A DNA stretch of 62,316 nucleotides, from contig CAVGBV010000002.1 in assembly GCA_963627615.1 (NCBI GenBank), positions 1 to 62,316 of the forward strand, in the 5' to 3' direction. The position numbers were made by a program, and so were the translations under genes. The DNA comes from Alloprevotella sp. Lineage in GTDB: Bacteria; Bacillota; Clostridia; Lachnospirales; Bianqueaceae. Below are positions 34,563 to 43,526 of the stretch, piece after piece (position 1 is the first letter of the stretch; every line of letters starts with the position of its first letter). Under the pieces are notes generated by a model. That model was given only the letters and a program-made list of their open reading frames with translations. It did no database searches and was not told where the DNA came from.

Positions 34563-35162
34563 ATGGAGCCGAACAACATGAAGCAGGTTTTTATAAGGAG
34601 TGTTGTGCGCGTTGTCGCCAGAGAAGGTCTGGGGAAGGCAACGACCAAAGCGATTGCCGCAGAGGCCAAACTCAATGAAGCCTACATCTATCAGTGTTTC
34701 TCCAATAAGGACGAGCTTCTGAGCGAGGCGTTCTATCTGGAGGATAAGAATTTTGCACAATATCTGCATGAAGCGCTGCGGGTCATGAAAACAAAGGGGA
34801 CATCCTGGAGGGACCGGGCGTATCAGCTATGGATAGGCAGCTGGAGATATATGCTGGAAAAAGAAGATGACTGCTGCTTTTATCTTCGGTATTATTATTC
34901 TGCCCAGTGCCGGACACATGCATACGCCACGCATCTGAAGTTCTTTCATGATCTGATTGACAGTACGAGGCCGACATTTAAGCCGGAGACCAATGTGGAT
35001 ATGCTGATCCATCAGATCTTTGATACGATGCTCTCTTTTGCGGCGAGAGTACTTGGCGGCGAGATGGAGAACAATGAAGAGACAGCAAAGTGGGCCTTTG
35101 AGCAGATCTACAGCTTTGTAATACCCAATGTCAGGCCGGAAGTGCTAGAGGCGATTTTATGA
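34563..35162 (+). CDS. TetR/AcrR-family transcriptional regulator
   Basis: N-terminal HTH (REGLGKATTKAIAAEAKLNEAYIYQCFSNKDEL). 199 aa. The stop overlaps the sipW start (ATGA). Confidence 0.75.
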   Translation: MEPNNMKQVFIRSVVRVVAREGLGKATTKAIAAEAKLNEAYIYQCFSNKDELLSEAFYLEDKNFAQYLHEALRVMKTKGTSWRDRAYQLWIGSWRYMLEKEDDCCFYLRYYYSAQCRTHAYATHLKFFHDLIDSTRPTFKPETNVDMLIHQIFDTMLSFAARVLGGEMENNEETAKWAFEQIYSFVIPNVRPEVLEAIL

Positions 35163-35689
35163 ATGGAAAGCTAAGAAAAGTATGGAATGGGATCAGCAGC
35201 GTTCTGGTAGCAGTGGTTGTCCTGCTGGCGGTCCTGCTGGTTGGCGTAAGATTGGTTGGTTTTCAGGTATTTACCGTATTGTCCGGTTCGATGGAGCCTA
35301 CATATCATACCGGAGCCTTGATCTATGTCAAGGAGGTGGATCCGTATACCATTCAGGTAGGCCAACCGATTACCTTTCTGCTGACGGAAGATACGGTCGC
35401 GACACATCGGGTTGTAGAGATCGTCAAGGACGAGTCCGATCCGGCCGTGATTCGCTTCCGCACCAAGGGAGATGCCAATGAAGTGGAGGACGGCAGTCTG
35501 GTGCATTATAAAAATGTGATTGGTGTTCCCGTCTTTTCGATCCCGTATCTGGGCTATGTCGCGGATTTCATCCAGCATCCGCCCGGAATCTACATTGCGA
35601 TTGCAGTTGGGGCAGTTCTCCTGCTGCTGGTGCTGCTGCCGGACCTCTTACATGGAGGCAAGGGTAGCGGTACATCACAACAAGGGTAA
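35159..35689 (+). CDS. sipW: SipW-type (archaeal/ER-type) signal peptidase I
   Basis: N-terminal TM helix, SGSMEP catalytic Ser box, THRV His box, KGDAN box, C-terminal TM helix. 176 aa. Confidence 0.85.
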   Translation: MNGKLRKVWNGISSVLVAVVVLLAVLLVGVRLVGFQVFTVLSGSMEPTYHTGALIYVKEVDPYTIQVGQPITFLLTEDTVATHRVVEIVKDESDPAVIRFRTKGDANEVEDGSLVHYKNVIGVPVFSIPYLGYVADFIQHPPGIYIAIAVGAVLLLLVLLPDLLHGGKGSGTSQQG

Positions 35690-35737
35690 AGCCATACGGC
35701 TCCCTATAGATTATTATTGCTTAAGGAGGTTTTCACG

Positions 35738-36313
35738 ATGAAGACAAAAAGCAAGGCTTTGCTCTTGACTCTCTGTGCAGCACTGTTGGTTGCAGCATCC
35801 GTGTTGGGCACACTGGCATATCTGACCGTGCAGTCAAAGCCAGTAGTGAATACATTCAAGGGCAGCAATGTGCAGGTAGATCTCACAGAGACGACGACAG
35901 ATTATAAGATGGTTCCCGGTTGTAAAATTGCCAAAGATCCTACGGCAAAGGTCCTGGCGGGCAGCGTGGAATGTTATCTGTTCGTTGAATTGGAGAAGTC
36001 CGAGAATTTTGATGATTATCTATCCTACACGGTGGATACATCAGAAGGAGAATGGACCCTGTTGAAGACAGAGGGACGGAAGAGTATTTACTACCGAGAG
36101 ATTCGGACAGCGGATATTGGCAAGGAATTTCCCGTACTGGCGGGCGCTGGCGGCGGGGAAGTCACCGTCAAGGAGAACGTAACGAAGGAAATGATGGATG
36201 GTTTAACAGAGAAGACATATCCGACCCTGACCGTTACGGCCTATGCGTCTCAGCTGTATAAAAATAACACGGATATCTTTACTCCGGCGCAGGCCTGGGA
36301 TAATATCGGCTGA
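35738..36313 (+). CDS. TasA/BsaA/camelysin-superfamily protein with SipW-cognate signal peptide (paralogue 1)
   Basis: Signal MKTKSKALLL...VLGTLAYLTVQ..NTF, matching the SipW-cognate pattern GT-x-A-x-F/L-T. Shares the VPG..KDP and C-terminal LTVTAYASQ blocks with the paralogues. AAGGAGG RBS. Confidence 0.65.
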   Translation: MKTKSKALLLTLCAALLVAASVLGTLAYLTVQSKPVVNTFKGSNVQVDLTETTTDYKMVPGCKIAKDPTAKVLAGSVECYLFVELEKSENFDDYLSYTVDTSEGEWTLLKTEGRKSIYYREIRTADIGKEFPVLAGAGGGEVTVKENVTKEMMDGLTEKTYPTLTVTAYASQLYKNNTDIFTPAQAWDNIG

Positions 36314-41652: not shown

Positions 41653-41665
41653 GGAGGATGAAACG

Positions 41666-42925
41666 ATGAAAAGATCATATAAAACGGTGATTTCTCTTGC
41701 GTTGATGCTGGCATTGCTGCTGAGCTTCACGACGACGGTATCCGCAGCATCCACAACCATCACCTTTAAGGGCTTTTCTGATGGGTTCGATTTTCAGCCG
41801 GGAAGCGAGTATACGGAGACGGATCTGTTTAATAACTTCAAAAATGTTATGCCGGGTGATGTGCTGACAGAGACGATTACCTTTACCAATGCGGCTTCGG
41901 ATTGCGACTTTGTGAATCTCTATATGAGAGCGGAAGCGCATGACGAGCAGGGAAATCCCCTGACCTACAGCGAAGCCGCGGAAAACGCGGATGGTAAGGA
42001 TCAGGCCAATGTTCCGGGTCAACGGGATGAAACCGTGGCGACGATGGCGGATTTTCTCGCACAGCTTTCCATGAAAATCTGGAATGGCACAAAACTGATC
42101 TATGATGCGTCACCGGATCAGGTAGGCGGACTGAAGGAGAATGTCCTTCTGGGGACATTTCGTGCCGGCGAAACAGCGGAACTTAAGGTTGAGCTGACGG
42201 TGCCGATTGAGCTGGGCAACGAGTATGCGAACCGTGTAGGTGAAGTAGACTGGGTATTCCATGTGGAAGCATATAATGAGAGCCAGCTTTCTGTCCGTAA
42301 GGTTTGGTCGGATGGTAATGCGGCTCACGAGCAGGAGAGCATTACGGTGAATCTGCTGAAGGACGGCCAGGTGGAGCAGTTCCAGGTGCTGAATGCCGCG
42401 AATGGCTGGGCCTATACGTTTGACCGTCTGGTGGAAGGCCATACCTGGACAGTAGAGGAAGCAGCAGTTTCGGAAGGGTATAGTGTCAGCTACGAGACCG
42501 TGGGGACGATGACAACTATCACTAATACCAAGAAAGAGGTACCGCCCACAGAGGATCCGCTGGACGTCACGGTTCGTAAGGTATGGGATGACAATAATGC
42601 CAAGGATCGCCCGGATTCCGTGACTGTCAATCTGTACAATGGCAAAGAACTCTATGCTTCCGTTCGTCTTGATGCGTCAAATAACTGGACGTATGCATGG
42701 AAGGACGAGAAGGCTCACGGCAATTGGCAGATTGTCGAGGTCAACATTCCTAAGGGGTATGTACCGTCCTATAGCGTAAGCAACGGTGTGGTAACGATTA
42801 CCAACACCCGTACGCTGATTCAGACCGGCCAGCTGAATTGGCCTGTTTGGGCGCTGGGCAGCGCCGGAGTAGTACTGCTTGCGCTTGGCGCGGTTGTACT
42901 CGGCAAGAAAAAGAAGAATGCGTAA
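41666..42925 (+). CDS. Cell-wall-anchored protein: TasA-like N-domain + two Cna-B-type domains + LIQTG sorting signal
   Basis: Sec signal (..TVSA/AS). The N-domain shares the MPGD...FTNAAS...NLYMRAEA and VDWVFHVEAY blocks with the upstream paralogues. Two repeats (VRKVWSDGNAAHEQESITVNLL; VRKVWDDNNAKDRPDSVTVNLY). LIQTG at 42815-42829 is followed by a hydrophobic helix and KKKKNA. Confidence 0.75.
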   Translation: MKRSYKTVISLALMLALLLSFTTTVSAASTTITFKGFSDGFDFQPGSEYTETDLFNNFKNVMPGDVLTETITFTNAASDCDFVNLYMRAEAHDEQGNPLTYSEAAENADGKDQANVPGQRDETVATMADFLAQLSMKIWNGTKLIYDASPDQVGGLKENVLLGTFRAGETAELKVELTVPIELGNEYANRVGEVDWVFHVEAYNESQLSVRKVWSDGNAAHEQESITVNLLKDGQVEQFQVLNAANGWAYTFDRLVEGHTWTVEEAAVSEGYSVSYETVGTMTTITNTKKEVPPTEDPLDVTVRKVWDDNNAKDRPDSVTVNLYNGKELYASVRLDASNNWTYAWKDEKAHGNWQIVEVNIPKGYVPSYSVSNGVVTITNTRTLIQTGQLNWPVWALGSAGVVLLALGAVVLGKKKKNA

Positions 42926-43526
42926 AAGAATAGGAATTGCGATTATAGCGGTGGGGGCAGTGCTGATTCTGGCGGCGCTGCTCCTCCTTCTTATGAATCG
43001 TTCGGAAGATAAGATGGCGGGAGAGAGGGCCAAAGAGGTAGTAAAGAGCATAGAAACCGTCATTGCGGCACAGGAAGACTCCGGTATGCAGGAGGAGTCC
43101 TCACAAGAAGAGCCGGTTCAGGAGAAGAAAATGCCAGTTGTTATGCTGGACGGATATGGTTATATAGGGTATCTGGAGATTCCCGCATTGGAATTAAAGC
43201 TCCCGGTTATGGATGAGTGGGATTATAACCGGCTGCAGATCGCGCCCTGCCGTCAGGCAGGATCTGTGTACGGCGATGACATGGTGATCGCGGCGCATAA
43301 TTATCAGAGCCACTTCGGCAGGCTCAAGGAACTGGAAAAAGGCGATACGGTGACCTTTACGGATATGGAGGGGACAATCCATACCTATGAGGTCAGGGTG
43401 ATCCGAACGCTCCAGCCGGATGCGGTGGATGCGGTGATTCACAGTGGGTATGATCTGGTACTCTACACATGTACACCGGGTGGCGCTACACGTGTAACCG
43501 TTTTCTGCACACGGGTAGAGGAATGA
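42918..43526 (+). CDS. Sortase-family transpeptidase
   Basis: N-terminal TM anchor. Catalytic His (VIAAHNY), Cys (LVLYTCTPGG) and Arg (ATRVTVF). ATG 42918 overlaps the upstream stop. Confidence 0.85.
   Translation: MRKRIGIAIIAVGAVLILAALLLLLMNRSEDKMAGERAKEVVKSIETVIAAQEDSGMQEESSQEEPVQEKKMPVVMLDGYGYIGYLEIPALELKLPVMDEWDYNRLQIAPCRQAGSVYGDDMVIAAHNYQSHFGRLKELEKGDTVTFTDMEGTIHTYEVRVIRTLQPDAVDAVIHSGYDLVLYTCTPGGATRVTVFCTRVEE

Follow-up and report, generated by a model that had tools for sequence, protein, structure and literature searches.

An operon of gut Clostridia that probably encodes a TasA-type fibre fixed to the cell wall by a sortase

Surface fibres of Gram-positive bacteria are commonly divided between pili that a sortase polymerises and secreted matrix fibres of the TasA type. 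Here we describe an operon that joins both assembly logics and is common in gut Clostridia. It occupies positions 34563-43526, + strand, of a 62,316-nucleotide (nt) stretch of contig CAVGBV010000002.1 (assembly GCA_963627615.1; the whole stretch is called the window below). The operon encodes a SipW-type signal peptidase, four TasA-like subunits that we call T1 to T4, a giant protein with a VWA domain, a CnaB protein with a sorting signal, here called the anchor, and a sortase. The system is real, conserved, widespread and uncharacterised. On balance we consider it probable that its products form one composite fibre, a SipW-dependent donor-strand pilus of the TasA/BsaA type that is covalently fixed to peptidoglycan.

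Results

A ten-gene operon conserved among gut Clostridia

The operon consists of ten co-directional open reading frames (ORFs) on the + strand, in the order tetR, sipW, T1 to T3, an acidic Cys-rich gene, the VWA gene, T4, the CnaB anchor gene and the sortase gene. A preliminary description of this DNA had announced eleven genes, although its own list sums to ten; the reading frames that it had listed were recovered at their positions on the + strand, and the peptide motifs it quoted are all present in the translations. The genes and their parts are as follows.

34563-35162, + strand: tetR, TetR-family regulator whose stop overlaps the sipW start (Pfam TetR_N, 9.3e-9)
35159-35689, + strand: sipW, SipW-type (archaeal/endoplasmic reticulum-type) signal peptidase I (TIGR02228, 97.9 bits, cutoff 51.85)
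35738-36313, + strand: T1, TasA/BsaA-like paralogue (GTLAYLT signal-peptide end; hhalign to the T2 family)
36347-36952, + strand: T2, TasA/BsaA-like paralogue (Peptidase_M73; TIGR04088)
36976-37530, + strand: T3, TasA/BsaA-like paralogue (TIGR04088; AlphaFold2 model matching the TasA fibre)
37547-37993, + strand: acidic secreted protein of 148 residues with a His/Cys cluster (family alignment)
38006-41062, + strand: giant VWA protein of 1018 residues, whole gene (VWA, 1.5e-7)
38006-41005, + strand: body of the giant protein, with signal peptide, split VWA, Ig-like domains and a terminal SpaA/CnaB-like domain
41006-41062, + strand: conserved C-terminal tail of the giant protein, GWLNGFSEVIRNIIGGNQ (W1002 and N1012 invariant)
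41080-41652, + strand: T4, TasA/BsaA-like paralogue next to the anchor gene (TIGR04088; hhalign to T3)
41666-42925, + strand: anchor gene, 419-residue CnaB protein (two Cna_B, 2.8e-29)
41666-42280, + strand: anchor signal peptide and TasA-like N-domain, residues 28-205 (hhalign, Foldseek)
42281-42814, + strand: anchor stalk of two CnaB domains (Cna_B, 2.8e-29, two stretches)
42815-42925, + strand: anchor sorting signal LIQTGQLNWP, hydrophobic segment and KKKK tail (conserved in homologues)
42918-43526, + strand: sortase with N-terminal membrane anchor and LVLYTCTP (TLxTC-type) motif (Pfam Sortase, 6.6e-17)

To place the operon among its relatives, contigs from one genome per species were scanned with an alignment of the anchor. 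Relatives of the anchor were found in 214 species-level genomes, of which 79 loci were kept, and the ORFs of these loci were classified against the ten window proteins. Gene counts below refer to the 41 complete loci (at least 9.5 kb of upstream sequence) or, for genes downstream of the anchor, to the 76 loci with enough downstream sequence. The carriers belong to Oscillospiraceae, Lachnospiraceae, Christensenellales, Holdemania and Anaerofustis and include many gut metagenome-assembled genomes (MAGs); Laedolimicola ammoniilytica, Brotocaccenecus cirricatena and Holdemania are among the carriers available in culture. The nearest relative is a Clostridia MAG at 96% identity, and an identical copy of the operon is present in GCA_963633995.

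A SipW-type peptidase gene adjoins the TasA-like genes in 40 of the 41 complete loci, at least three TasA-like genes (usually five) are present in 40, and a gene of the T4 type lies directly upstream of the anchor gene, again in 40. The sortase gene directly follows the anchor gene in 69/76 loci, and the T2 type occurs in one to six copies. Synteny had been named in the preliminary description as a check on the idea of a single system, and the gene set is strongly conserved, its order recurring in about 80 genomes. This recurrent order thus identifies a conserved system and not a chance juxtaposition.

T1 to T4 are TasA-like subunits with candidate isopeptide-lock residues

Sequence comparison shows T1 to T4 to be TasA-like subunits with predicted SipW-type signal peptides, encoded alongside a SipW-type peptidase. 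With family alignments built from the related loci, the four families are mutually homologous at hhalign probabilities of 99-100% (T1 against T2, 100%, E 3e-44; T4 against T3, 99.8%). The model of the SipW-cognate signal peptide, TIGR04088, matches T2 (34.2 bits), T3 (21.9 bits) and T4 (19.5 bits) above its cutoff of 19 and finds no match in the anchor, giant or acidic protein. T1 alone has no Pfam or NCBIfam match; its SipW-type motif GTLAYLT is visible in the translation. Peptidase_M73 (PF12389, camelysin/TasA) matches T2 above the gathering cutoff of 22.5 (30.5 bits, 4e-7) and T3 below it (17.1 bits), and has no match to T1 or T4. The BsaA family model TIGR04090 yields 42.6 (T2, E 5.9e-11), 40 and 25 bits, none of which reaches its cutoff of 60, and the SipW equivalog model, which is still the best equivalog for sipW, scores 108 bits (3.7e-31) against a cutoff of 190.

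Because profile searches of the Protein Data Bank (PDB) with the T2 and T3 families gave nothing significant (AbpX scored E 0.22 with the T3 family, and an alphaRep protein 0.031), the fold was assessed by structure prediction, which among the four subunits covers T3. The AlphaFold2 model has a mean predicted local distance difference test (pLDDT) score of 79.7, with a confident core at residues 40-175. Its top PDB match is the TasA fibre solved by cryo-electron microscopy (8aur_A; E 4.8e-4, probability 1.0, query-normalised TM-score 0.47), and the next matches are other strand-complemented filament subunits. Residues 1-37 are disordered in the model, as would be expected of a donor strand. 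The claim that the four paralogues are TasA-like was upheld; the relationship to TasA is remote, and the profile-profile and fold evidence for it is moderately strong.

All four families carry a conserved set of one asparagine, one glutamate and one lysine. These residues are N38, E51 and K66 in T1 (conserved in 93, 95 and 95% of the family), N35, E48 and K73 in T2 (98, 95 and 95%), N34, E47 and K71 in T3 (97, 95 and 98%), and N47, E60 and K69 in T4 (95, 92 and 88%). The Glu lies exactly 13 residues past the Asn throughout (N-x12-E), the Asn is about nine residues past the predicted SipW cut, and the Lys is in the strand that follows the PG motif. The T3 model places the Asn within the disordered N-terminus and the other two residues in core strands. 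BsaA polymers of Clostridium perfringens are locked by an intermolecular Asn-Lys isopeptide bond between N35 and K74, with E56 as the catalytic residue, as mutagenesis showed (PMC11580942). The set in T1 to T4 resembles this triad, and we infer that the positions are equivalent. The preliminary description had treated TasA/BsaA fibres as non-covalent, which does not agree with the reported lock of BsaA (PMC11580942) and, given the Asn/Glu/Lys set, is probably wrong for this locus.

The anchor pairs a TasA-related N-domain with a sorting signal

The anchor has an ordinary signal peptide, with cleavage predicted after VSA27. The N-terminal domain that follows (the N-domain) aligns with the T3 family at an hhalign probability of 96.2% (E 2e-9, 103 columns), and the two have in common the blocks VMPGD...N...Y[VW][RK] and [LM]GNEY[AQ]N. 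In the model of the full-length anchor (pLDDT 77.5) the CnaB domains, at pLDDT 85-96, dominate the Foldseek list, the stalk matching Cna B repeats at 1.8e-12. For the N-domain there is just one clear single-domain match, monomeric TasA (5of1_B; E 2e-4, target-normalised TM-score 0.45). The profile alignment, the common motifs and this structural match together bear out the relationship between the anchor and the paralogues that the preliminary description had proposed. At the position of the donor Asn the N-domain has Thr or Ser, and at the position of the paralogues' Lys it has an invariant Glu, Glu69.

The N-domain has a conserved polar set of its own that the T paralogues lack: K59 (codon at 41840-41842), D53, D65, N75, H92, N185, R190, E193, D195 and E201. 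This set may represent another kind of lock, a metal site or a nucleophile for the sortase.

A search with the N-domain alone, covering 1.84 billion representative proteins, returned a family of 1141 representative clusters. No Pfam model covers the region in any of 150 representatives (0/150), which rules out a known Pfam domain. Its partners in these proteins are Cna_B, SpaA, pilin D3, FctA, LPXTG anchors and, once, SLH; most of the 150 end in an x-x-x-T-G sorting signal and some in a plain membrane anchor. We take the N-domain to be an unannotated TasA-related module whose C-terminus, judging by these architectures, consistently ties it to the cell surface.

The sorting region of the anchor consists of LIQTG, a 21-residue hydrophobic stretch and KKKK, which is the architecture of a sorting signal without the Pro of LPXTG, and the LPXTG hidden Markov models of Pfam and NCBIfam do not match it. 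The signal is LIQTGQLNWP and not LPXTG. LIQTGQLNWP is invariant in 14/14 aligned homologues and kept in most of 81 loci, with LIPTGQ and LIDTGQ among the variants. Anchor homologues have up to four CnaB domains or none at all, and the shortest consist of the N-domain and the sorting signal. Within the operon the sorting signal is found in one protein only, the anchor, whose gene adjoins the sortase gene.

The sortase matches Pfam Sortase (61.9 bits, cutoff 26.6; 6.6e-17) and TIGR01076 (50.3 bits, cutoff 39.35). Among the class models that of class C scores best (56.8 bits, cutoff 160), and the others likewise stay below their cutoffs. The translation has no C-terminal membrane anchor. The nearest solved structure is C. 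perfringens SrtD (4d7w, 9e-8), which prefers LPQTGS; SrtD was rejected as the sortase adjacent to the bsa genes, since it clusters with another anchor gene, CPE_RS01465. In one Acetatifactor locus (L061, 8115-end) a short anchor of 259 residues is followed by three sortase-like genes instead of one.

These data bear on whether the locus is a conventional sortase-polymerised pilus. The CnaB protein would then be a shaft pilin linked head to tail through a lysine such as K59, in NFKNVMPGD, and the TasA-like proteins would be accessory. Such a pilus would fit a sortase that scores best against class C models and the Ebp pilus sortase, an anchor model that matches pilins such as RrgB and SpaC through its CnaB domains, and the 93% conservation of K59. 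Yet every sortase class score is far below its cutoff, the operon encodes neither a second protein with a sorting signal nor LPXTG tip or basal pilins, the YPKN pilin motif is missing, the giant VWA protein has no sorting signal, and many anchor homologues have no CnaB stalk at all. We regard a conventional pilus as highly improbable.

The giant protein ends in a conserved tail that covaries with T4

The giant protein has an ordinary signal peptide, a VWA domain with the metal ion-dependent adhesion site motif DQSGS near residue 80, a weak SpaA match at residues 915-995, and a last CnaB/SpaA-like domain that ends in ITCTNTK. It has no match among PDB sequences. The protein terminates in ...RNIIGGNQ, with no hydrophobic segment, and at the place where a pilus tip adhesin would have LPXTG it has a 22-residue tail that includes the segment listed above. 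The tail follows the motif W-L-x-G-x6-N-x-hydrophobic, and W1002 and N1012 are 100% conserved in 35 full-length homologues. The pattern is found in 47 of 69 large operon-strand ORFs against four of 2604 other ORFs, and those four are fragments of the same protein.

A protein of at least 700 residues fills the slot before T4 in 37/41 loci and is of the VWA type in 24. The others have heads of Listeria-Bacteroides repeats (Flg_new), MucBP or Muc_B2 and retain the tail. The sequence around the tail Asn, V-x-N-[IV]-[FY], resembles the donor segment V-x-N-T-F-T of the T subunits. Across loci the tail Asn and the T4 Lys are both kept in 50, the Asn alone in one (L062) and the Lys alone in none, and both are lost in seven, an association with a Fisher p of 2.7e-8 before any correction for phylogeny. 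At least three of the co-losses are independent. One lies in the clade L012/L014/L020/L066, whose close relative L015 keeps both residues, another in L043, whose relative L028 keeps both, and a third in L039, where most locks are gone. T1 to T3 mostly keep the triad in these loci, that of T3 being intact in 6/7. We propose that the tail acts as a donor strand at the C-terminus of the adhesin, through which the adhesin would dock into T4, with the tail Asn1012 locked to T4 Lys69.

The tail also bears on the possibility that the operon encodes co-regulated but separate structures, in which the T fibres would be secreted or loose, the CnaB protein an independent sortase-anchored adhesin or receptor related to them only by descent of one domain, and the VWA protein free or associated with the fibre as BsaC is. 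This has a minor though real chance of being correct. In C. perfringens strain 13 the BsaA polymers are mostly extracellular and sortase-independent, and BsaC is secreted (PMC7395162, PMC11580942); an N-domain that lacks the Asn and Lys positions and has a modest structural similarity to TasA would suit separation as well. However, the succession of T4, anchor and sortase genes hardly varies from family to family, the N-domain shares homology with the subunits and is always anchored C-terminally, minimal anchors are made of the N-domain and a sorting signal alone, and the giant protein is anchorless, yet its conserved tail covaries with T4.

Two loci depart further from the window operon. In L039, a goat-caecum MAG, most paralogues lack the Asn, Glu or Lys (the positions read TEK in one T2, NTQ in T1, NVE in another T2 and QDQ in T4), and the tail of the giant protein lacks its Asn; this lineage seems to have abandoned the putative covalent locks altogether. 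In the reduced locus L080 the classification of ORFs revealed no T4, giant protein or sortase, and the anchor ends in a plain membrane segment. This gene content indicates that T4 and the giant protein, and likewise the sorting signal and the sortase, behave as modules. The recognised genes of L080 are sipW, two T2-type genes, T3 and the gene for the anchor N-domain protein only. Its contig and that of L079, a short fragment, are binned as Candidatus Saccharibacteria, a label that may be a binning error.

Acidic protein, expression signals and genomic context

The acidic protein has a cluster, H-x3-C-x3-C-x5-C-x-C-x-C-H, that looks metal-binding, and a conserved C-terminal motif, V-x-Y-T-N-V-A-P-F-G; no Pfam or NCBIfam family model matches it. 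It is encoded separately in 10/41 loci. In L016, L023, L055, L044 and L029 the giant protein itself carries the acidic module, fused at its N-terminus, which makes it probable that the two work together; the fused modules show CTCG..EGEAHKEGCP repeats and GPF.PPV. The C-terminus of the acidic protein was considered as a further Asn-bearing donor and rejected, as its Asn positions are not conserved.

Genes in the operon are separated by 12-48 nt or overlap. Ribosome-binding sites of the GGAGG type precede seven of them (T1, T2, T3, the acidic gene, VWA, T4 and anchor), and sipW and the sortase gene each overlap the preceding gene. The T4 ORF opens at GTG 41059, and its ribosome-binding site best fits the start at 41080, with an alternative ATG at 41074; the sortase ORF opens at TTG 42879, with its best start at 42918. 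Two candidate transcription signals flank the genes.

34386-34414, + strand: candidate promoter TTGATT-17-TATACT with an extended -10 TG (9/12 consensus match)
43571-43610, + strand: intrinsic-terminator-like hairpin (43571-43604; 13-bp stem, 7 GC pairs) and T-run (TTTTAT)

The terminator that had been described is present. The promoter site described at 34386-34414 also exists, but its match does not stand out from shuffled sequence: the region has 17 promoter-like sites against a shuffled expectation of 13.9 +/- 3.6, and a stronger match (10/12) lies at 34342-34371. The assignment is plausible. A palindrome read directly from the sequence, TTCGAAA-N8-TTTCGAA at 34375-34396, overlaps the -35 element of the candidate promoter and is a possible TetR operator, and about 150 nt of untranslated leader would separate this promoter from tetR. 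A tetR gene is found upstream of sipW in 12/41 loci.

In the window the operon is flanked by housekeeping genes, with TrkH/TrkA, a SpoU methylase and Lgt on one side and sugar metabolism on the other, and a mobile-element context for this copy was rejected on that ground. An ORF of 232 residues after the terminator (43662-44360), which has only a weak sub-threshold match to DUF790 (nuclease-like), also lies 3' of the operon on the identical contig L082 and is probably outside the system. Against a plasmid collection, T2 gave no match and the anchor matched generic CnaB proteins only. A whole-operon copy with 75% identity (L001, ERZ24713151 contig, 1-21275) is flanked by a phage-type integrase gene on one side and by primase, ParM-like and MobA/MobL relaxase genes on the other, and anchors of 70-75% identity occur in different families (Lachnospiraceae, Oscillospiraceae, Christensenellales). 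Together these observations suggest that the operon spreads horizontally on integrative mobilisable elements. The contigs of L007, L040 and L057, binned as Bacteroidaceae, Succinivibrio and Akkermansia, are probably mis-binned short contigs.

Discussion

Each subunit of a TasA fibre is completed by the N-terminal strand of the one before it, the first such strand coming from TapA (PMC9674648, PMC10151520). We propose that the fibre of the window operon would be built as follows. After Sec export, SipW would free the N-terminal strand of each T subunit, and the freed strand would insert into the β-sandwich of the next subunit in the TasA fashion, to be locked by a Glu-catalysed Asn-Lys isopeptide bond as reported for BsaA. 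The giant adhesin would start the fibre by placing its C-terminal tail in T4 (Asn1012 to Lys69) and would thus come to lie at the tip, with a head that is exchangeable between strains. T4 would donate its own strand to the shaft subunits (T1, T2 and T3, in whatever order), growth would take place at the membrane-proximal end, and the N-domain of the anchor would accept the last strand and end growth. Held in the membrane by its C-terminus until the sortase acts, the anchor would then be cleaved at LIQT/G and joined to lipid II, and so to the wall, with its two CnaB domains as a wall-spanning stalk. The predicted order is tip adhesin, T4, shaft, anchor, wall, and the TetR protein would control expression of the operon.

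The proposed polarity follows from the tail. If it fills the groove of T4, the only open end of the chain is an N-terminal donor strand, which needs an acceptor at the base, and the anchor N-domain, with its TasA-like fold, ordinary signal peptide and lack of a donor Asn, fits that role. The opposite polarity would resemble that of TapA: the N-domain would be complete and donate its N-terminal strand (SITFxGF) to the first T subunit, nucleating the fibre at the wall with distal growth, and the giant protein would attach elsewhere or nowhere. TapA, itself a complete fold, does nucleate TasA through its N-terminus (PMC10151520, PMC9674648), the N-terminal segment of the anchor is modelled as a strand that resembles the T donor pattern minus the Asn, and the N-domain matches the self-complemented TasA monomer 5of1. 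A T4 groove occupied by the tail, as the covariation suggests, would however leave a donor end that calls for a basal acceptor and not a basal donor, and assembly at the membrane is the favoured model for BsaA (PMC11580942). We therefore think the TapA-like polarity distinctly improbable.

Several points weigh against a single wall-anchored fibre as we have drawn it. We infer that strands insert and are locked by bonds, that the N-domain acts as an acceptor and that the sortase is specific for this signal, as we do the subunit order and every physical contact, including the fibre-anchor and fibre-VWA links. The structural similarity to TasA is modest, at TM-scores of about 0.45-0.47, and stands beside PDB profile searches without a significant match; hhalign, too, matched the N-domain significantly to neither the T1 nor the T4 family. 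The Glu of the N-domain in place of the acceptor Lys implies a final junction that is unlocked or otherwise locked. The spacing from Asn to Glu is 13 residues in T1 to T4 against 21 in BsaA. The association between the tail and T4, uncorrected as it is for phylogeny, draws on at least three independent co-losses and has one exception (L062) and one ambiguous case (L076). Finally, deletion of the adjacent sortase gene left the BsaA fibres of C. perfringens strain 13 unaffected (PMC7395162), a null result that is qualified by the loss of the LPXTG gene from that strain.

The closest described relative is the C. perfringens bsa locus, in which srtB lies by sipW-bsaA-bsaB-bsaC and which produces SipW-dependent BsaA polymers (Obana et al. 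2020, PMC7395162) that undergo donor-strand exchange locked by an isopeptide bond (Kivimaki et al., 2024/25 preprint, PMC11580942). Compared by its published description, it has in common with our locus SipW, at least two TasA-like genes, a VWA protein and a neighbouring sortase. The present locus differs in having four paralogue families, all with the Asn/Glu/Lys set that BsaB lacks, an anchor made of a TasA-like domain on CnaB stalks with LIQTGQLNWP, and a sortase gene inside the operon and co-directional with it. It also differs in its giant protein, about 1000-1700 residues in length with exchangeable heads and a tail that covaries with T4, and in its acidic Cys-rich partner and TetR regulator, where bsa has BsaRS.

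The idea that such systems may be wall-anchored, raised in the preliminary description, has a precedent. Most C. perfringens strains have a BsaB-like gene with LPXTG, whose product was speculated to anchor the BsaA fibre via SrtB, and in other bacteria too the neighbours of BsaA/TasA genes often include LPxTG, SpaA, sortase and signal-peptidase genes along with several paralogues (PMC11580942). The general association of TasA-like genes with sortases is thus already in that preprint, and the wall-anchoring hypothesis, although partly anticipated, finds good support in the anatomy of the locus. New in this analysis are the candidate lock residues in all four paralogue families, the adhesin tail, its covariation with T4 and the proposed polarity. 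In the literature that we searched, neither a wall-anchored TasA-type pilus nor the N-domain family nor the tail has been characterised.

Other fibres resemble parts of the locus. In the B. subtilis TapA-SipW-TasA and B. cereus CapP-TasA-CalY systems an accessory protein contributes the initial strand and tethers the fibre to the cell, but there is no CnaB or LPXTG-type base and no giant adhesin; these systems are explicitly sortase-independent and non-covalent (PMC13082335), and TasA is without the Asn-Glu-Lys triad (PMC11580942). Sortase pili such as SpaCBA, RrgABC and Ebp likewise have a tip adhesin (often with VWA), a shaft and a sortase-linked basal subunit, and have CnaB domains with internal isopeptide bonds and Lys-centred covalent links between subunits. 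In our locus, by contrast, nothing indicates polymerisation by a sortase, the subunit fold is different, the bonds between subunits would be autocatalytic, and the tip adhesin has a donor-like tail instead of LPXTG. The logic of our model, tip-first donor-strand assembly ended by an anchor subunit, is that of chaperone-usher and type V (Mfa/Fim) pili; type V pili also use strands released by a protease, as proposed here, and their tip protein Mfa5 has a VWA domain (PMC7835359). Their machinery (usher, lipoprotein sorting, gingipain) is unrelated, with no sortase and no intermolecular isopeptide locks. The archaeal bundling pili formed by AbpX belong to the TasA-like donor-strand family that is common to domains of life and, unlike the locus, have no wall anchor, sortase or adhesin modules.

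More tentatively than for the composite fibre itself, we raise the possibility that the operon represents a third kind of Gram-positive pilus, one that combines donor-strand exchange and self-locking with swappable adhesins plugged in by their tails and a LIQTG base fixed by a sortase, so that it would be covalent from tip to wall without a polymerising sortase, and widespread among Clostridia of the human gut. In such a pilus the tail of the giant protein and T4 would act like a natural peptide tag with its catcher domain. If so, they would be a new natural peptide-to-domain ligation pair and a possible tool for protein ligation. The model names residues that can be mutated (tail N1012; T4 K69 and E60; LIQTG), which would test the anchoring idea left speculative for C. 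perfringens.

To our knowledge, almost nothing is known of the adhesion biology of these groups of gut Clostridia. If the model is correct, these commensals would hold on to mucus or to other cells by very strong fibres, and the swapping of heads would change what they bind.

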